NCBI GenBank assembly: GCA_963815115.1 | Contig: CAWFFN010000012.1 | Coordinates: 160,001-224,000, forward strand | Length of the DNA stretch: 64,000 bases | DNA from: an uncultured delta proteobacterium | Lineage (GTDB): Bacteria; Desulfobacterota; Binatia; DP-6 | Direction of reading: 5' to 3' | In this document: positions 1 to 7,757 of the stretch, in pieces | How positions within the stretch are numbered: position 1 is the stretch's first letter | Layout: each line of letters begins with the position of its first letter | Position numbers and translations under genes: made by a program | The notes under the pieces: generated by a model | Databases searched by the model: none | Told to the model about the DNA's origin: nothing | The model's input: only the letters and a program-made list of their open reading frames with translations

Positions 1-474
1 GGCCAGCACGACGGCGAGGATCCCGCACAGGCTCCCGATGTACTGCGGCAGCTCGAGCGACGGTCCCAGGGTGGCGACGGCGAGCGCGTTCACCGGCACC
101 ATGACGGCGGATTCCTGGGGCCAGTTCACCTGCGTCGAGGAGAGCACCGTCCTCCAGCGGTCCCACAGGCCGCCCTTCACGAGCAGTGTGGCGGCGTCCA
201 CCACGCCCGCTTCGGGGAAGAACAAGCGCGGCTGGTGCTCGGAGGTCGCGAAGAGGGTCCGCAGGAGTGCGGCGAGCACGACGATGCCGAGGAGGAGGCC
301 CAGCTCCTGGCGCCGCGGGATGGGAGGGATCGCGGGGACCGGCCGGCGGCGCCCCCGGATCGACGCCACGACGATCGCGAGCACGATCAGGGCCCCGAGC
401 ACGATGAGCCCTCGCTCTGCGCGGCCCGAGAGCTCGAGCCAGCGCAGCGCGCCGACCGGGACAGGCGGCTGCAC
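1..474 (-). CDS. 5' part of a paralog of the 750..3521 GT-C-like membrane protein (continues beyond window start)
   Basis: Near-identical to 3048..3521 (offset 3047); GTG start at 474 is equivalent to 3521; frame stays open to the window edge. Confidence 0.8.
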   Translation of the reverse strand, partial: MQPPVPVGALRWLELSGRAERGLIVLGALIVLAIVVASIRGRRRPVPAIPPIPRRQELGLLLGIVVLAALLRTLFATSEHQPRLFFPEAGVVDAATLLVKGGLWDRWRTVLSSTQVNWPQESAVMVPVNALAVATLGPSLELPQYIGSLCGILAVVLA

Positions 475-749: not shown

Positions 750-3521
750 TCAACCCTCGTGCCCGAGGCAGCCGGGCATGAACTGGAGCTCGAGCGCATC
801 GACCCGGTTCCGGTGCCCGACGGCGAGGTAGTTCCCGTCAGCGGCGAGCGCGGAGGTGCCCGTCGTTCCGAGCGACAGCAGCTTCGTCAGGTCCTCGCGC
901 ACGAGCAGCTTTCCGGTCTCGTCCTGGATCGAGAGCCGTGCCGCCTGCGGCGAGAGCGTCGCGACCCATCCGTTCCCCACGGCGATCGGTGAGCAGTCGC
1001 CCAGCCGGACTCCCCAGCCAGGCGACACCACCGCCGGGAAGCGCCGCACGATCGTTCCCGAGCCGGTATCGAGGACCTGGATCTCCTGCTCGGCCGAGGC
1101 GAGGAAGAGCAGGTCCCCGCTGGCGGCGATGCCCGTCCATGCGCCTTGCGGGAGGGGCCACTGCGGGGCGGGAGCGGCGCTCAGCCGGCCGCTGAGAGCG
1201 TTGACGACCCACCAGGTGCCGTGCGCGAACGCGGCGCACGCGTGTCCGATGCTGCCGGGCAGTGCCGGCACCTGCGTGCGGGCGGCGGGGATCCCCTTCC
1301 CGATGCGCATCTCGCCCCCATGGCGGTCGAGCAAACGCACCACGGGCGTGCTGCCGTCCCGGGTCTCGACGCCCATCGCGACCGGTTCCTGGACCGTGAG
1401 CTTCAGCTTGCCCAGGCTCACGAAGTCGTAACTTCCGACGATCCACGAGGGGTTGGCACCCTGCCCGGGCAGGCTGCCGAGCACCGAGAGCGCATCGTTG
1501 TCCTGATCGCTCGATCCCCGCTTCACCAGGGTCGCACAGCCGCGATCGGCATCGAGGCTCATGAACTGCTCGAGAGCCGCGCGTGCCTCGGGCCACCTCG
1601 AGCGCGGCGTCCGGATCTGGAGGGGAGGAACGCCTTCCTCCGCCGGTCGTTCCGCCCCGACCCCGAGCGGCGGCTCGGCCAGGCTGACGGGCGTTCCGCC
1701 CGCTGCCTGGAGCCGATTGGCGAGCTCCAGCTCCCACCGCGTCGGATCCCTGAACTCCCACACGACGGTCTCGGCATCGCCGGCCCGGATCTGCGCGTCG
1801 AGATACGTGAGGGGCGACGCGACATCGTCGGCGTAGAGCCGGCGCACGCTCGGGAGCGCAGTCTCGCGGTCGACGTTGCGCAGCGCCGAGTACAGATCGA
1901 TGAACCGCTCCGGCCTGCCGGCGCCGAGCGCCGCCAGCGTGCCGTAGAGACGAAGCCCCCCCGGCGAGGTGGGATTCTCGCGCTGCTCGTCGCTGTCCAC
2001 CAGCACGACCGAGCTGCCGCTCGCGATCTCGTGCCGCCAGCGCCGGCCGTCGCGCGCACATCCCAGGCACGTCAGCCCGTCGCCGAAACCGCTCTCACCG
2101 AAGGGGATCCTCGTTCCGTGGGCCGGCGGCAGGGCGGCGCACAGCAGACCCAGGCCGCCTCCGGACCACGCGGCGAGCGCAAGGACCACGCCCGCGAACA
2201 GCGTGCGCCGCGCGCCGGGCGATGCCTCGACGAGGGGACGCATGCGGGCGAGAACGACGACGCCGTGCGCAGCGAGGGCGCACCATGCCAGGTCGAAGAT
2301 CAGAAAGCGCCGCGCGGTGGGCGCGCTGAGGACCGGCAGGGCGAGGCCTCCGAGCGCGAGCGCGATCCAGAGATACCAGGCTCTGAGGGCTCCAAGCCTG
2401 GCGAGGCCAACGAGCCCCAGAAGGGCAACCGGAAGGAGACACAATCCGCCGTGGGCGAACCCGGCGTCGAGCGCCGTCCCGGGACCGGTGGCCGGCAGCT
2501 TCCAGAGCGCGTTCAGGTCTTCCGCTCGCCCGGTCCAGAAGTACGTTCGAACCGCCGGGACCAGCTGCTGTTTCAGGTTGTCGTGGACACTGCGGAGCAC
2601 CTCGCCGTACGTCTCCTCGGAGCGGTTGCCGACATAGCCGGCATAGCGCGGCCAGAGCGATGCCAGCGCCGGCATTCCCCCGGCGAGGACGCCGGCGACC
2701 GCGAAGCCCGATCCCAGGCACAGTGGAAGCACCAGCCACTGGCGGCGCACGGATCCCGCCGCGCGCATCCCCGCGAGCAGCGCCAGGAGCGAGAGCGGAA
2801 TCGCGACCCGCGCGGCGTAGTAGTCATAGACCGACGTCCACGCGACCACACCGGCGAGGAGCGCCAGCGCGACGCTCCTGCGCGAGCCGGCGCGATGGGC
2901 GAGCCAGAGGACGAGGAGCGTGTGGGGAACCGCCGCGATCTGCAGCCCGCCGAGGCGTGCCCAGGTGATCTGCAACGGGGAGACGGCGACCAGTCCCGCG
3001 AACGCGAGGCCGAACGCCGGCGACACGACCGCCCGCCCGACGAGCCAGGCCAGCACGACGGCGAGGATCCCGCACAGGCTCCCGATGTACTGCGGCAGCT
3101 CGAGCGACGGTCCCAGGGTGGCGACGGCGAGCGCGTTCACCGGCACCATGACGGCGGATTCCTGGGGCCAGTTCACCTGGGTCGAGGAGAGCGCGACCTT
3201 CCAGCGGGTCCACAGGCCGCCCTTCACGAGCAGTGTGGCGGCGTCCACCACGCCCGCTTCGGGGAAGAACAAGTGCGGCTGCTGCTCGGAGGTCGCGAAG
3301 AGGGTCCGCAGGAGTGCGGCGAGCACGACGATGCCGAGGAGGAGGCCCAGCTCCTGGCGCCGCGGGATGGGAGGGATCGCGGGGACCGGCCGGCGGCGCC
3401 CCCGGATCGACGCCACGACGATCGCGAGCACGATCAGGGCCCCGAGCACGATGAGCCCCCGCTCTGCGCGGCCCGAGAGCTCGAGCCAGCGCAACGCGGC
3501 GACCGGGACAGGCGGCTGCAC
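750..3521 (-). CDS. Multi-TM glycosyltransferase of ArnT/PMT (GT-C) type with C-terminal beta-propeller-like domain
   Basis: Many hydrophobic helices with GT-C-like segments (GILAVVLAWLVGR, LVAVSPLQITWAR, YDYYAAR, ARRFL); beta-rich C-terminus with blade-like repeats (WTGIAASGDLLFLAS, ALAADGNYLAV). Confidence 0.65.
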   Translation of the reverse strand: MQPPVPVAALRWLELSGRAERGLIVLGALIVLAIVVASIRGRRRPVPAIPPIPRRQELGLLLGIVVLAALLRTLFATSEQQPHLFFPEAGVVDAATLLVKGGLWTRWKVALSSTQVNWPQESAVMVPVNALAVATLGPSLELPQYIGSLCGILAVVLAWLVGRAVVSPAFGLAFAGLVAVSPLQITWARLGGLQIAAVPHTLLVLWLAHRAGSRRSVALALLAGVVAWTSVYDYYAARVAIPLSLLALLAGMRAAGSVRRQWLVLPLCLGSGFAVAGVLAGGMPALASLWPRYAGYVGNRSEETYGEVLRSVHDNLKQQLVPAVRTYFWTGRAEDLNALWKLPATGPGTALDAGFAHGGLCLLPVALLGLVGLARLGALRAWYLWIALALGGLALPVLSAPTARRFLIFDLAWCALAAHGVVVLARMRPLVEASPGARRTLFAGVVLALAAWSGGGLGLLCAALPPAHGTRIPFGESGFGDGLTCLGCARDGRRWRHEIASGSSVVLVDSDEQRENPTSPGGLRLYGTLAALGAGRPERFIDLYSALRNVDRETALPSVRRLYADDVASPLTYLDAQIRAGDAETVVWEFRDPTRWELELANRLQAAGGTPVSLAEPPLGVGAERPAEEGVPPLQIRTPRSRWPEARAALEQFMSLDADRGCATLVKRGSSDQDNDALSVLGSLPGQGANPSWIVGSYDFVSLGKLKLTVQEPVAMGVETRDGSTPVVRLLDRHGGEMRIGKGIPAARTQVPALPGSIGHACAAFAHGTWWVVNALSGRLSAAPAPQWPLPQGAWTGIAASGDLLFLASAEQEIQVLDTGSGTIVRRFPAVVSPGWGVRLGDCSPIAVGNGWVATLSPQAARLSIQDETGKLLVREDLTKLLSLGTTGTSALAADGNYLAVGHRNRVDALELQFMPGCLGHEG

Positions 3522-3619
3522 GTCGTGGCTTGTGCGCCCCGGCGCCGAATGCTGTCAAGAAGGAAGCGGAACGTTCATGCTCGCGCACGGCGTGCCACCG
3601 CGAGCAGGCTCGCTCCGAC
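3048..3619. repeat. Direct repeat copy 2
   Basis: Matches 1..572. Confidence 0.95.
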
Positions 3620-3641
3620 CGGCAGCGGTACGCCAGCCGGG

Positions 3642-4061
3642 TCAGGGGGCGCCGCTCTTCCCGCCGTCGCCGAGCAGCCGCGCTCGCGTCCCCGCGACGT
3701 CGACGAGCGGCTGCTTGCGCAGGCGCTCGACCTCCGCCGCGGTGTACGGGGTGAAGTCCGCGGGCACGTGGGCGTGATCGAAGCGCTCCAGCAGCCAGTT
3801 GAGCACCGCGGCCAGCGCCGCGTCGTCGAGCGGCGCCTGCGCGACGCCGGGCACGCGCGCGAGGTAGTCGCGGCCGCCCGGCGCGGCGAGGAAGCGCGCG
3901 ACCGACCCCTGCAGCGCGGGAACGCTGCCGGGCGTGCTCGTGCCGTCGGCGCGGTGGCAGCCCTCGCAGTTGAGCGTGTAGTCGAGCGCCGGTCCGCTCG
4001 CCGCGCCGGCGAGCGGCGCGATCCCGACGACGGCCGCCAGCGCGGCGCCAGCGCGCCACAT
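3642..4061 (-). CDS. Monoheme cytochrome c, exported
   Basis: Signal peptide, single CEGCH motif; starts 3 bp after the mauA stop. Confidence 0.85.
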   Translation of the reverse strand: MWRAGAALAAVVGIAPLAGAASGPALDYTLNCEGCHRADGTSTPGSVPALQGSVARFLAAPGGRDYLARVPGVAQAPLDDAALAAVLNWLLERFDHAHVPADFTPYTAAEVERLRKQPLVDVAGTRARLLGDGGKSGAP

Positions 4062-4064
4062 CGG

Positions 4065-4616
4065 CTACGACTTCGTCGCCACGCCCAGCACGACTGCGAC
4101 CGAGCAGTTGACGGCGCGGCTCTTGGTACCGAAGCACCACAGCAGGTCGTTGTTCCTGGAGGTGTAGTACACGGGCCGCTCGCCCTCGGTACGCGAGCAG
4201 CGGCATCGCATGCAGAGGGACTGCCCGCAGCAGTCGTTGTACGAGATGATGTAGTCCTTGCCGTCGCCGGGATGGCGGCACGTGCCGATCCAGGTGACCG
4301 GCGACATCTCCGTCCCCGGCGGGCAGGTGTTCTGCGAGCCGCCGCAGCACGAGCACAGGAACCCGTCGATGGCGCAGTGGCGCCAGTAGCTGCAGCTCTG
4401 GGGATCGCCCGCCGGGGCCTCGAGGCGGGCATCGTCGGGCGCCGGGACCCGCGACTCGTCATCCGCCGCGCGTGCCACCGGCAGCAGCGGCAGTGCCGCG
4501 GCGCCGACCAGCGCCGCACCGGCGCGCGCGAGCACGCTCCGGCGCGACGTGCGCCGCGCGAGCGCGCGGGCGCTCCGTTCCACCAGGCGATCCATCCAGC
4601 CGCGCCCGTCGTTCAT
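4065..4616 (-). CDS. mauA: TTQ amine (methylamine/aromatic amine) dehydrogenase light chain
   Basis: Tat signal SRRSVL; CSYWRHCAIDGFLCSCCGG, CPPG, YNDCCG and NNDLLWCFG motifs with both TTQ Trp residues; ATG at 4616. Confidence 0.93.
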   Translation of the reverse strand: MNDGRGWMDRLVERSARALARRTSRRSVLARAGAALVGAAALPLLPVARAADDESRVPAPDDARLEAPAGDPQSCSYWRHCAIDGFLCSCCGGSQNTCPPGTEMSPVTWIGTCRHPGDGKDYIISYNDCCGQSLCMRCRCSRTEGERPVYYTSRNNDLLWCFGTKSRAVNCSVAVVLGVATKS

Positions 4617-5233
4617 CGCCGTGCGACCTCCGTGCGCTCCTCGACGCCGCGCAGGAACTCCTGGATCGAGGCGACGCCCCGCTCCTGCGCCTCGAAGAGG
4701 CTCTCCAGGTGCTCGCGCGTGTTCACCAGACCCTTGGCGCGCACCGTGCCGGAGCCGTCGACGAGCGCGGCATAGGGCAGCTTTCCCACCTGCCATCGCA
4801 TGCCGAGCTCCGGCGACAGCAGATACGGGAACGCATCCAGGCGCTCGGCACGCACGAACGCCTCGTGCTCCGCGCGCGGACCGTCACTCGCGAGCACGAG
4901 GTCGAGCCACGCCGTCTCGCGCCGGGCGATGCCGCGCAGCGCAGGCAGGAGCGTCTTGCAGACCGGGCAGGTGGGCGACAGGAAGAAGAGGAGGGTGCTC
5001 CGGCCGTCGTCGCGCGGGGCGCCGATCTCGTGCAGGCGGGCGCCGAGATCCTCCGCCTGGATCACGGGCGCCGCCGCGCCGACCGTCGGACCGCGTCCGA
5101 GGAGCAGCGCGCCTGCCGGCGCCACGCGCTCATAGAGGACGCCGATCTGGCGGGTGAGGGCCACGACCACGCAGGCCAGCACCACGACGGCGATCCACAG
5201 CACGATCGTCGAGACCACGAGCGCCTGCGTCAC
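4613..5233 (-). CDS. mauD: Methylamine utilization protein MauD (thioredoxin-like)
   Basis: N-terminal TM helix, RQIGVLYERVAPAGAL, CPVC, KGLVNTREHLESL; GTG start overlaps the mauE stop. Confidence 0.92.
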   Translation of the reverse strand: MTQALVVSTIVLWIAVVVLACVVVALTRQIGVLYERVAPAGALLLGRGPTVGAAAPVIQAEDLGARLHEIGAPRDDGRSTLLFFLSPTCPVCKTLLPALRGIARRETAWLDLVLASDGPRAEHEAFVRAERLDAFPYLLSPELGMRWQVGKLPYAALVDGSGTVRAKGLVNTREHLESLFEAQERGVASIQEFLRGVEERTEVARR

Positions 5234-5766
5234 GCGGCCTCCTGCAGGCGCGCGAGCGCGGGACCCGCGGCGAGGAGGTGATCGCTGGCCCTCCAGCAGG
5301 CCGCGAACGCCGCGGTCGCGGCCACGACCGTGAGCGGGTCGATCCACACCATCGGACGGGGCTGCACCGGGGCGAGAGCGGCGAGCGCGACCGCCACCGC
5401 CACCAGCGCCAGGTTGCGCACCACCAGCCAGCCGCTGATCGGACGCCGCATCGCCGGTCCGGTGCAGCCGCAGTCGAGATGGCGCCGCCCGCGCGCGAGG
5501 TTGACGGCGATGGCGCCGGCGTACAGCGCGAGCAGGGCGGCTGCGCCGGCGAGTCCCCACCGGCGCGCGACGAGCAGGGCGGCGACGACGGCCCCCTCGG
5601 CCACCACGAGCACCGTCGCGCCGGGCGAGACGAGCGGACGCGGCAGCAGCCGGTAGTCCTCGACCGTCGCCCGGAAGCGCGCGACGTCGCGCACCTTGTG
5701 CCCCGTCGCGGACAGGAAGAGGAGCGCGAGCGCGACACGCACGGTCACGTCGACGACCGGGTCCAT
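5230..5766 (-). CDS. mauE: Methylamine utilization membrane protein MauE
   Basis: Hydrophobic DoxX-like protein with NLARGRRHLDCGC and LVVRN motifs; lies between mauB and mauD. Confidence 0.9.
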   Translation of the reverse strand: MDPVVDVTVRVALALLFLSATGHKVRDVARFRATVEDYRLLPRPLVSPGATVLVVAEGAVVAALLVARRWGLAGAAALLALYAGAIAVNLARGRRHLDCGCTGPAMRRPISGWLVVRNLALVAVAVALAALAPVQPRPMVWIDPLTVVAATAAFAACWRASDHLLAAGPALARLQEAA

Positions 5767-5769
5767 GGC

Positions 5770-7008
5770 TCAGGGCGCCACCAGCAGGCCGCCCGCGAGC
5801 CCCGGCTCCGAGACCTCCCGCAGGACCTTGCCCGTCATGGCATCGTGGATCGTGAGCGTCGGCGGCAGCGAGGCGGAGGCGACCAGCACCGGATGCTCGT
5901 CCTGCGTCACCAGGATGCGCTCGATTCCCGGATTGGGCACGACCTTGTCGAGGAGCCAGCGCTCGATGCGGCCCGTCGTCCGGCTGCGGTCGATCGAGGC
6001 CTGCAGGCCGACGAAGCTGACCACCGGGTTCAGCATCGAGACGCGCTGCACCCGCGTTCGCGTTCCCACGTCGTACACCCAGACCTCGGTGCCCGGCGCC
6101 TTGTGCGAGTCGGGGCCGCCCTGGTGCACCAGGACATAGAGGCGTCCCGAGGCCTGGTGCAGGGCGAGAAGCTGACCGCCGCCGATGCGCCACGAGGCAG
6201 AGCGATCCTGGTCGTCGAGGAGCGGCCAGGTGTCGCCGAAGCGCACTGTCTCGCCCGACACGTCGACGGGATGGACGACCCCGTCGAAGGACACGAAGAA
6301 CCACGTGCCGCCGCGCCGGACCGCCTTCTCGGTGATCGGGTCCTTCTGGGCGTCGAAGAAGGGCTCGGTGCGTGCCGGTGTTGCCGTGCCGCTCGCCTCG
6401 TCGAGAGTCACCGTGAGCGCCCCGCCGTTGGCGCACAACATGAGGAAGCGCCGCGGACCGGCGCCGTAGACGAGGCTGCACCCCGGGGTGGGCACCTCGG
6501 TGACGAAGCGCCGCGCCTGCACGTCGACGATCGAGAGCGAGGTGACGGGAGTCAGGTTGAACACCGCGAGGAAGCGGCCGTCGTCGGACAGCGCGCTGGA
6601 CGCGTTGCCCGGGTAGTACTCGGCGCGCCGGGGCGGGATCTGGATCTCCTGGAGCGGCGCCAGGGTGCGCGCGTCGTAGACCGTCACCACGTCCGTGCGA
6701 TCGCCGCGCACGCCGCGGCTGTAGTAGGTCTCGGAGAGGTAGATCTCGCGGTGGTCGGGCGAGAAGAGGGGTAGGATCGCGAAGCCGACGCCGGGCGTGC
6801 CCGACGTGATCTGGCCGAGCAGCTCGCCCTTCCCGCCGTCGAAGAGGGCCGTGCGGTGCAGGATGATGTCGCTCAGCCAGAACCAGTGCGGCCCGGGTCG
6901 TTCGGGCAAGGTCGCCGCCTTGCCGATGGTCTCCGGCTCCGGGGCCGCGCCCGCGAGCCCGACGGCGAAGCACCCGGCGAGGAGTGCCACCGGAAGGCGG
7001 CGTCGCAT
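5770..7008 (-). CDS. mauB: Amine dehydrogenase heavy chain (beta-propeller)
   Basis: Signal peptide from ATG 7008; ETYYSRGVRGDRTDVVTVYD, FNLTPVTSLSIVD, TPGC and HKAPGTEVWVYD motifs. Confidence 0.92.
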   Translation of the reverse strand: MRRRLPVALLAGCFAVGLAGAAPEPETIGKAATLPERPGPHWFWLSDIILHRTALFDGGKGELLGQITSGTPGVGFAILPLFSPDHREIYLSETYYSRGVRGDRTDVVTVYDARTLAPLQEIQIPPRRAEYYPGNASSALSDDGRFLAVFNLTPVTSLSIVDVQARRFVTEVPTPGCSLVYGAGPRRFLMLCANGGALTVTLDEASGTATPARTEPFFDAQKDPITEKAVRRGGTWFFVSFDGVVHPVDVSGETVRFGDTWPLLDDQDRSASWRIGGGQLLALHQASGRLYVLVHQGGPDSHKAPGTEVWVYDVGTRTRVQRVSMLNPVVSFVGLQASIDRSRTTGRIERWLLDKVVPNPGIERILVTQDEHPVLVASASLPPTLTIHDAMTGKVLREVSEPGLAGGLLVAP

Positions 7009-7091
7009 GGCCGTCCGTCTCACCGAGGACAGTCCGAGAGGCACGAGGCGGGCGTATAGCATGCACGACCCGTCGCGGAACACGGCCGACC

Positions 7092-7121
7092 TTGACCGGC
7101 CTCGTACGGCATCCACATACT
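7092..7121 (+). promoter_or_regulatory. Putative sigma70 promoter for the LysE gene (near-leaderless)
   Basis: TTGACC-N18-CATACT, ending 9 nt before GTG 7131; no SD sequence. Confidence 0.45.
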
Positions 7122-7130
7122 CCGATCGCG

Positions 7131-7757
7131 GTGCGCTGGGAGACCTGGAGCCTGTTTCTCGTCACCGAGACGCTTCTCTGCCTCACGCCGGGGCCGGCGG
7201 TGCTGTTCGTGCTGTCGCAGGGGCTGGGCCGGGGCACGGCGGCGTCGATCCGGGCGAGTCTCGGCATCCTCGCCGGCAACGCGCTCTACTTCCTGCTCTC
7301 CGCGACGGGGCTGGGAGCGATCCTCGTCGCCTCGTACGACCTCTTCTTCTGCATCAAGTGGGCCGGCGCAGCCTACCTGGTCTGGCTCGGGCTGCGCGCG
7401 CTCCGCGCCACGGGCACCGTGCTGGCGGTGAAGCCGGCGACGGGTGCAGCCGAGTCCCGTCACGTGTTCGCACGCGGCTTCGCCGTCCAGGCAGCGAACC
7501 CGAAGGCCATCGTCTTCTTCACCGCGCTGCTCCCGCAGTTCATCGATCCCGCGGGGAGCGTCCCGCTCCAGGTGGGCATACTCGCGCTCACCAGCATCGC
7601 GGTCGAGTTCGTGGTCCTGGCGACCTACGGCATCTTCGCCGGTCGCGTCTCGCGGCTCGCGGCGGAGCCCCGGGTCGCGGCATTCCTCGAGCGCGCCGCC
7701 GGCGTGCTGCTGATGGGCGCCGGACTGCGGATGGCCGCGCTGCGACGGGCGGGGTGA
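7131..7757 (+). CDS. LysE/RhtB family translocator
   Basis: LTPGPAVLFV, KWAGAAYLVWLG and NPKAIVFFTALLPQF motifs. Confidence 0.9.
   Translation: MRWETWSLFLVTETLLCLTPGPAVLFVLSQGLGRGTAASIRASLGILAGNALYFLLSATGLGAILVASYDLFFCIKWAGAAYLVWLGLRALRATGTVLAVKPATGAAESRHVFARGFAVQAANPKAIVFFTALLPQFIDPAGSVPLQVGILALTSIAVEFVVLATYGIFAGRVSRLAAEPRVAAFLERAAGVLLMGAGLRMAALRRAG

Follow-up and report, generated by a model that had tools for sequence, protein, structure and literature searches.

Analysis of a 64,000-nucleotide window (the whole stretch of DNA studied, positions 160,001 to 224,000 of contig CAWFFN010000012.1, assembly GCA_963815115.1, from an uncultured delta proteobacterium of the Binatia) showed a gene for a small monohaem cytochrome c directly after the genes of a tryptophan tryptophylquinone (TTQ) amine dehydrogenase. 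With slightly better than even confidence, the product of this gene is taken to be a dedicated periplasmic haem partner and electron acceptor of the dehydrogenase, an enzyme like aromatic amine dehydrogenase (AADH) with the composition MauB2MauA2, in which it would replace amicyanin. By alignment, the protein belongs to the class I cytochromes of Thermus c552 type and has lost the hairpin bearing the axial methionine. The cytochrome and MauG were mutually exclusive in the sampled genomes, and their genes occupy the same slot after mauA. The sequence-only reading of the window had offered the protein as either a TTQ maturation factor or a non-standard electron acceptor; the acceptor role was the better supported of the two, and a role in maturation is possible but less likely.

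Sequence, fold and loss of the methionine hairpin

The open reading frame (ORF) contained what had been described from the letters alone, namely a single CEGCH motif at residues 32-36, no methionine after Met1, and the strings GGRDYL, TPYT and DHAH. Read by eye, the N-terminus looks like a Sec signal, and the mature protein has about 117 residues. The neighbouring genes contained 31 methionines in 3033 residues (1.0%), and at that frequency a run of 103 methionine-free residues after CxxCH has a chance probability of P ~0.35. Only 11 of 98 mau-linked relatives were fully methionine-free after CxxCH. The absence of methionine from this single protein is therefore not significant. What is above chance, as judged from the alignments, is that the canonical methionine-bearing segment has been lost throughout the whole family.

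Comparison of the cytochrome with PF00034 gave 24 bits against a cut-off of 21.3, and the match was limited to profile positions 7-43 (the N-terminal 37 residues). The family profile matched Thermus thermophilus cytochrome c552 (1c52) with an E value of 1.9e-20 in two blocks, query 31-70 on chain 10-49 and query 74-128 on chain 71-127, leaving PGV (query 71-73) opposite c552 residues 50-70. A Foldseek search with the AlphaFold2 model placed c552 structures on top (template modelling score 0.64, E 1.5e-4, 32-34% identity). The mean predicted local distance difference test (pLDDT) value of the model was 81.1, with 93-95 at residues 61-90, including the remodelled loop. The haem ligands of c552 are taken here to be His15 and Met69. 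In the c552 alignment numbering, the histidine of CxxCH is residue 15 and position 69 falls within the stretch lost from the cytochrome.

The methionine-keeping paralogues encoded upstream of the cytochrome, or fused to it, served as an internal control. These proteins retained the hairpin and the motif NGVMPAQ, as in '...GRDYLIMVVTTGLMGSLKVAGVSYNGVMPAQSGLSE...', and the corresponding Met-less domain reads '...GREYLGRVPGVATSALSD...', with about 18 residues deleted and the paralogue methionine opposite Ala74. In this comparison NGVMPAQ aligned to PGVA[TQN]S. Residue 89 was tryptophan in 95 of the 98 mau-linked family members; at this position c552 and the Met-bearing paralogues carry Tyr or His.

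Candidates for the sixth haem ligand

Conservation was counted over the 98 mau-linked members, which come from many lineages. The positions invariant in all of them (98/98) were C32, G34, C35, H36, P48, G63, R64, V70, P71, G72, E110 and R115. Position 75 was occupied by T (38), Q (27), N (11), S (6), A (5), L (3), M (3), G (2), Y (2) and R (1), with Gln or Asn in 38 of the 98, and position 90 by M (58), T (19), I (10), L (6), V (3) and S (2). Outside CxxCH, the share of the 98 members with a possible ligand (M, H, K, C or Y) did not exceed 81% in any column, and 6 of the 98 lacked Met, Gln, Asn or His at position 75, Met90 and His98 all together. By these counts the family is one without a conserved protein-derived sixth ligand.

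An alignment had been proposed as a check for an invariant tyrosine or histidine, and none was found: Tyr66, Tyr106 and His98 were present in only 79, 63 and 54 of the 98 members, respectively. Since there is no invariant Tyr or His, a MauG-like His/Tyr haem is not supported. These three residues and Met90 (only 58 of 98) were rejected as the sixth ligand, and residues 90 and 98 would also lie far along the predicted helix 80-98, which begins at the distal loop. Ligands donated by the partner subunits are not supported either. Cys213 and Cys228 of MauB lie at the predicted interface, yet they were invariant in both cytochrome-linked (79/79) and MauG-linked (14/14) sequences; being invariant in both clades, they are probably a structural pair. 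Residue 164 of MauA is not invariant: 73 of 83 cytochrome-linked rows carry Met at this position, and 17 of 18 MauG-linked rows carry Leu.

Linkage to TTQ genes and taxonomic spread

At E <= 0.001 the family comprised 694 proteins in the 90% clusters and 1908 representative clusters in the 50% library. A scan of one genome per species gave at least 516 encoding stretches, the best 80 of which were taken as loci. In 78 of these 80 loci, from several phyla, mauA directly preceded the cytochrome gene on the same strand, with gaps of 9-826 nt; of the remaining 2, L020 ends at a contig edge and L031 is rearranged. One unpublished genome (G017, locus L023) contributes a single row among many to the counts, alignments and tree, and none of the conclusions depends on it. 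Each of the 80 fetched relatives had one CxxCH per ORF. The hosts belonged to Binatia, Myxococcota, Steroidobacteraceae, Sphingomonadales, Spirochaetota and others, and the cultured hosts among them include Sphingopyxis sp. J-6 and Sphingosinicella soli DSM 17328. The genome of the window carried a single family copy, at the mau locus.

Two even samples gave the frequency of the linkage. Nine of 401 Alphaproteobacteria had mauA, and the cytochrome adjoined it in 9/9. Among 400 scored Gammaproteobacteria (one genome left out, one unscored), 14 had mauA, and the cytochrome adjoined it in 9 of the 13 tested. With both class samples pooled, the cytochrome stood beside mauA in 18 of 22 mauA-bearing genomes. 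Loci L035, L040, L056, L065, L109 and L110 had the order mauB-mauA-cytochrome without mauE and mauD. No conserved extra genes upstream of mauB were found in the loci examined.

The gap between mauA and the cytochrome exceeded 300 nt in 27 of the 80 loci, and all of the gaps examined (8/8) held a c552-type His/Met cytochrome with a full-length PF00034 match and the methionine loop kept. The representative library also contained fused proteins of 280-330 aa, with the Met-keeping domain N-terminal and the Met-less domain C-terminal; the fused gene came right after mauD-mauA in 4/4 metagenome loci that had both the gene and its upstream DNA (L159, L160, L161 and L163). The gaps and fusions thus define three architectures: the Met-less cytochrome alone, as in the window, Met-keeping and Met-less cytochromes as neighbours, and the two fused.

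Downstream genes in Proteobacteria encoded an aldehyde dehydrogenase, an amino-acid permease, a TonB receptor, a molybdopterin oxidoreductase, a sodium:solute symporter and a phenylacetate-CoA-ligase-like (PaaK-like) protein; these catabolic and transport genes come from loci L028, L044, L049, L058, L031, L039 and L073. The downstream catabolic gene set is consistent with catabolism of larger primary amines, that is, of substrates other than methylamine. According to a review, Novosphingobium KN65.2, which has a mauBEDA operon, does not grow on methylamine (PMC8292978).

Other arrangements were recorded at a few loci. One Sphingosinicella locus (L080) has, two genes before mauB, a 484-aa ORF (2224-3675, plus strand) that carries two CxxCH motifs; it had no Pfam match and a weak TIGR03791 match (46.9 bits), carried an in-frame TGA in the genome search, and was absent from sister loci. 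One gammaproteobacterial genome (G811; L104, L105 and L106) had three mauA copies, two of them as mauB-mauA pairs. None of the three was accompanied by mauE, mauD, the Met-less cytochrome or a nearby MauG, and one pair had a 206-aa dihaem ORF 1.6 kb downstream. A third type of cluster (L103, G544:C167, 545-5413) comprised mauBEDA, a 323-aa ORF, a 169-aa monohaem cytochrome, a 371-aa seven-haem cytochrome and a MauG-like dihaem protein of 172 bits, below the cut-off for MauG.

Distribution of MauG and amicyanin

MauG was searched for with the model TIGR03791 (cut-off 443.85 bits) and amicyanin with TIGR02657. The 67 cytochrome-linked genomes were the window's own, 50 related genomes, 8 further Alphaproteobacteria and 8 further Gammaproteobacteria. 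A MauG equivalog over the cut-off was found in 0 of the 67. At E <= 1e-10, no TIGR03791 match at all was found in 19 of 66 cytochrome-linked genomes, many other genomes being incomplete metagenome-assembled genomes. The match-free 19 include the complete chromosome of Sphingopyxis sp. J-6, a 4.4-Mb chromosome record and three alphaproteobacterial assemblies with a near-whole-genome main contig. In the window's genome, the best TIGR03791 match in the search was 148 bits, on other contigs; as whole proteins, two unlinked dihaem genes of the cytochrome c peroxidase/MauG superfamily scored 192 and 103 bits, under every equivalog cut-off.

A Methylophaga genome served as the positive control: the gene that directly follows its mauA scored 474 bits, and the cytochrome family is not represented in this genome. 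With the Methylophaga MauG as the query, 36 loci were obtained, of which 18 were mauBEDA-mauG clusters (Methylophaga, Methylotenera, Methylobacillus and Methylophilaceae). A six-frame search with the cytochrome-family profile at E <= 0.001 gave matches in 0 of the 36 loci, including 0 of the 18 mauA-mauG loci.

A MauB tree of 97 rows (quick IQ-TREE run, midpoint root, several long branches, with the Shimodaira-Hasegawa-like approximate likelihood ratio test, SH-aLRT, as the only support) placed the 14 MauG-linked rows in one clade (SH-aLRT 100) and the 79 cytochrome-linked rows outside it, with one change of state. Because the MauG-linked rows form a single clade, the exclusivity of cytochrome and MauG reads as one old split and not as repeated replacement. 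The anticipated anti-correlation of the family with mauG was thus found, but it amounts to a single evolutionary split in this tree.

The MauG-linked loci were L102 and L123-L140, against L003-L116 for the cytochrome-linked ones, and in the even samples a MauG equivalog was present in only 1 of 22 mauA-bearing genomes. The textbook MauG-linked methylamine dehydrogenase (MADH) looks like a minority form among TTQ enzymes.

That amicyanin is missing at this system, as had been supposed, agrees with the searches. TIGR02657, a model used without a positive control, gave no match in the window's genome, which is 100% complete by markers, and no match over its cut-off in any of the 50 related cytochrome-linked genomes. 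The gene most similar to MauG (214-355 bits, under the cut-off) adjoined a small cupredoxin-like gene in three of the cytochrome-linked genomes. These pairs lie at G037:C2:809306-810531, G035:C95:26313-27529 and G044:C192:2196-4537, on contig numbers that differ from those of the other matches, and they may form a separate system of a MauG-like protein and a cupredoxin.

Predicted complex with MauA and MauB

A complex of mature MauB (residues 60-448), MauA (118-243) and the cytochrome (22-139) was modelled from alignments of relatives with haem included. The interface score derived from predicted aligned errors (ipSAE) was 0.84 (median of three runs), and the best of 3 controls gave 0.00. In calibration, 116 of 157 solved complexes attained this mark, as did 2 of 215 mismatched pairs; the counts apply to the present model only roughly because it used its own alignments and a haem ligand. 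At least 93% of contacts agreed between the runs, and the pLDDT of the partner was at least 88.

In the model, the cytochrome makes contact through residues 26, 29-35 (the CxxCH edge), 37, 43, 46-47, 70-72, 74-77 (the remodelled loop) and 118-123. The contacts on MauA are 166-172 (with Trp169), 183, 185, 213-214, 222-223 (beside Trp220) and 237-242, and those on MauB are 189-191, 209-213, 228-230, 234, 247-249 and 256-257. The lowest expected error was between cytochrome residue 75 and MauB 228-230. The binding to MauAB envisaged earlier is therefore a strong prediction of the model, with the haem edge on the TTQ face; the geometry suits an acceptor and is compatible with a maturase. We know of no solved complex in which a cytochrome c sits directly on a TTQ dehydrogenase, the known ones holding amicyanin, azurin or MauG, which makes it unlikely that the model memorised a like complex.

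The predicted interface differed between the clades. On MauB, the 79 cytochrome-linked rows had G212 with A, S or G at 229, whereas the 14 MauG-linked rows had D212 and R229. On MauA, in an alignment of 105 rows, the cytochrome-linked motif EMSP[IV]TWIGTC was opposed to SLSPSSWVASC in the MauG-linked sequences. Signatures of the Trp169 region of MauA, such as residue 164 (Met in 73/83 against Leu in 17/18), could be used to classify mauA matches from metagenomes.

Proposed function and alternative explanations

If the cytochrome acts as haem partner and acceptor, its haem would be held by His36 alone, with the sixth position open, water-bound or weakly filled by Gln75. The exposed haem edge (CxxCH) and the loop RVPGVAQAP would dock, through the front face typical of class I cytochromes, in the groove between light and heavy subunits over the TTQ tryptophans, and the deletion of the hairpin may be what allows the haem edge to approach the TTQ site closely. 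The docked haem would take electrons from substrate-reduced TTQ at the point where amicyanin acts in classical systems. The electrons would then pass to the respiratory chain, in Proteobacteria via the His/Met c552-type cytochrome that is adjacent or fused on the upstream side; in the window's genome, the gene for the next carrier would lie elsewhere. The large and confident predicted interface suggests a stable third subunit and not a fleeting carrier.

Several points weigh against the acceptor role. No candidate ligand column exceeds 81%, though pure electron carriers normally keep a low-spin six-coordinate haem. The cytochrome-linked genomes are without MauG, so that some other factor must complete TTQ in them, and apart from the structural genes the cluster has only one conserved redox gene, that of the cytochrome. 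The predicted complex supports binding only as a likeness of fit, compatible both with electron acceptance and with oxidation of the TTQ precursor. The AADH of Alcaligenes faecalis was reportedly purified without haem and is said to use azurin in vitro. A literature search, which did not extend to subscription journals, found no spectroscopic, kinetic or genetic data for any member of the family.

The nearest alternative, possible though on balance doubtful, is that the cytochrome is a substitute for MauG. Its ligand-free haem would react with H2O2 or O2 to give a high-valent species that completes TTQ (cross-link and oxygenation) from a docked position at short range, either alone, as in Binatia, or with an adjacent or fused His/Met haem, like the five- and six-coordinate pair of MauG; an acceptor role afterwards would be possible. 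The distribution is in keeping with this, since a MauG equivalog is present in 0/67 cytochrome-linked genomes, 19/66 have no superfamily match at E <= 1e-10, and 0/18 mauBEDA-mauG loci match the family profile, the Methylophaga control having MauG and no cytochrome. The exclusivity is one event in the MauB tree, however, and may reflect lineage inheritance only; superfamily genes able to act in trans are present in many genomes, and the window's genome has the two of 192 and 103 bits. The cytochrome occupies the operon slot of mauG as the only conserved extra redox gene of the cluster, but MauG chemistry is understood to take two coupled haems and the Binatia clusters have one. An ancient and conserved loss of methionine, with invariant VPG, next to a paralogue that keeps its methionine, the replacement of Tyr or His by Trp89 in 95/98 members, and a model in which the haem domain sits right over the TTQ tryptophans all point towards catalysis; the lack of any invariant Tyr, His or acid-base residue next to the haem counts against it.

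A broader form of this proposal takes the whole cytochrome family as the MauG-independent TTQ catalyst of the majority, AADH-like branch. Its members would dock on the precursor tryptophans, act in Proteobacteria as a two-haem oxidant with the His/Met haem, and perhaps stay in place as the first acceptor. It is put forward tentatively, as rather unlikely.

A haem that binds small ligands or gates the enzyme is improbable. Here the open site would bind amine, ammonia, NO or O2 and so regulate or protect the dehydrogenase. Five-coordinate c-type haems such as cytochrome c' and the sphaeroides haem protein (SHP) do bind small ligands, the family has no conserved protein sixth ligand, and the partner-specific docking would keep the distal loop within the interface. 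The protein has no sensor or output domain, however, and a redox chain accounts better for the strict gene position after mauA and for the ordinary electron-transfer cytochrome that is paired with it or fused to it. Hardly credible is a decayed cytochrome that lost its methionine by chance and whose gene is on the way out, for although the lack of Met in this single protein fits chance (P ~0.35), the family has 1908 representative clusters with motifs invariant across phyla and a conserved operon position, and the AlphaFold2 model is confident (mean pLDDT 81.1; 93-95 over residues 61-90).

Gene layout of the locus

The cytochrome gene is the last of five closely packed genes on the same strand, in the order mauB-mauE-mauD-mauA-cytochrome (Table 1). 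Its ATG lies 3 nt past the mauA stop, and the mauE start lies 3 nt past the mauB stop. The true start of mauA is likely Met61 at 4614-4616, in an ATGA overlap with the mauD stop. A terminator scan of 3300-7600 found none.

Table 1. Features of the TTQ dehydrogenase locus in the window
Feature	Position	Strand	Evidence
Met-less monohaem cytochrome c gene, c552-type, 139 aa	3642..4061	-	ORF; PF00034; profile match and fold to Thermus c552
Putative signal peptide, ~residues 1-21	3999..4061	-	Hydrophobic N-terminus ending AGA/AS; cleavage judged by eye
Haem motif CEGCH, residues 32-36	3954..3968	-	Sequence; C32, G34, C35, H36 kept 98/98
Remodelled distal loop RVPGVAQAP, residues 69-77, in place of c552 hairpin and Met loop	3831..3857	-	
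mauA-like TTQ light subunit	4065..4796	-	PF02975, 160.8 bits, E 1.9e-47
mauD, thioredoxin-like accessory protein	~4613..5260	-	TIGR02661, 204.4 bits against cut-off 188.6
mauE, membrane accessory protein	5230..5766	-	PF07291, 98.4 bits
mauB-like heavy subunit	5770..7116	-	PF06433, 136.9 bits

The TTQ tryptophans of MauA, W169 (4290-4292) and W220 (4137-4139), were both invariant and 51 residues apart, presumably the same spacing as that of Trp57 and Trp108 in MADH. MauA scored 178.6 bits against the NCBI methylamine dehydrogenase equivalog TIGR02659, under the cut-off of 196.85, and MauB scored 138.4 bits against the corresponding heavy-chain equivalog, under the cut-off of 454.45. Against PDB sequences, the heavy chain gave 173 bits with the AADH large subunit of A. 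faecalis and 125 bits with MADH heavy chains, and the mature domain of MauA was likewise nearer to AADH among solved structures.

On the 3' side of the cytochrome, a gene for a 923-aa membrane protein (weak PMT_2 glycosyltransferase match) has its 5' part repeated at the start of the window. The direct repeat covers 300 nt at 97% identity (window 1-300 and 3048-3347, within the minus-strand ORFs 1-474 and 750-3521), which suggests two tandem paralogous membrane-protein genes.

Comparison with known systems

The textbook picture of TTQ biogenesis and electron output comes from Paracoccus and Methylobacterium, with MauG and amicyanin. In the genomes sampled this textbook system is the exception, as the cytochrome takes its place in 18 of the 22 mauA-bearing genomes of the two proteobacterial classes and is also present in many Binatia, Myxococcota and other lineages. 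The maturation and respiratory wiring of most TTQ amine dehydrogenases are undescribed, and the cytochrome family is a candidate for both steps, with Sphingopyxis and Sphingosinicella isolates as cultured hosts for testing. Calls of 'methylamine dehydrogenase' in metagenomes, for example in Binatota, are to be read with care, because the enzymes look closer to AADH and stand beside aldehyde dehydrogenase, permease and phenylacetate-CoA-ligase-like genes.

The window's cluster has the small cytochrome c gene directly after mauA and neither mauG nor an amicyanin gene. In A. faecalis, the aauBEDA cluster is reportedly followed by orf-2, a small monohaem cytochrome c described by Chistoserdov in 2001, and the likeness between the two clusters lies in their gene order and in a heavy subunit nearer to AADH than to MADH. 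Methylacidiphilum infernorum V4 has an operon 'mauBEDAmoxG' with a cytochrome c, and its MauG homologue lies elsewhere in the genome and was assumed by the authors to act in trans (PMC2474590). Here the likeness is one of gene order, mauB-E-D-A and then a small monohaem cytochrome c in a cluster that lacks both mauG and an amicyanin gene, and the passages of that paper on the operon do not mention a missing Met ligand (PMC2474590). A genome survey of Binatota assumed amicyanin as the acceptor (PMC8262859). The literature search, apart from subscription journals and supplements, returned nothing on the Met-less haem, the c552 ancestry, the dominance at mauA loci, the exclusivity with MauG or TTQ formation without MauG. 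In the literature searched, as far as its accessible parts go, the order of mauBEDA and a cytochrome had thus been noted before and the Met-less family pattern was not found.

Amicyanin (MauC) is not homologous to the cytochrome, being a copper cupredoxin where the cytochrome carries haem c. The predicted docking region of the cytochrome, the TTQ face of both subunits, resembles the site that amicyanin is understood to use. In Paracoccus-type clusters the amicyanin gene comes directly after mauA, in the same slot as the cytochrome.

MauG (TIGR03791/PF03150) is likewise not homologous. It is a dihaem protein that carries out the six-electron completion of TTQ on the precursor enzyme, whereas the cytochrome has one CxxCH and no match to PF03150 or TIGR03791, and the two genes share the slot after mauA, that of MauG in clusters of Methylophilaceae and Methylophaga. 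A haem of MauG is understood to have no distal protein ligand, and the same is probable for the cytochrome, which has no conserved Tyr ligand. MauG is also understood to act at long range, whereas the haem domain of the cytochrome is predicted to touch the TTQ site.

Cytochrome c' and SHP (His/Asn) have c-type haems that are five-coordinate or weakly ligated. The haem state of the cytochrome is likely alike, with His and an empty or weak sixth site; the fold and the genomic context differ. The Thermus c552 (PDB 1C52, 1DT1 and 2FWL) is homologous over the full chain, with CxGCH, GGREYL, AAVLN and the C-terminal wrap in common. It has the hairpin of residues 50-70 where the cytochrome has only the three residues PGV, and His where the family has Trp89. 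The c552 serves terminal oxidases, whereas the Met-less family is tied to the genes of TTQ dehydrogenases.

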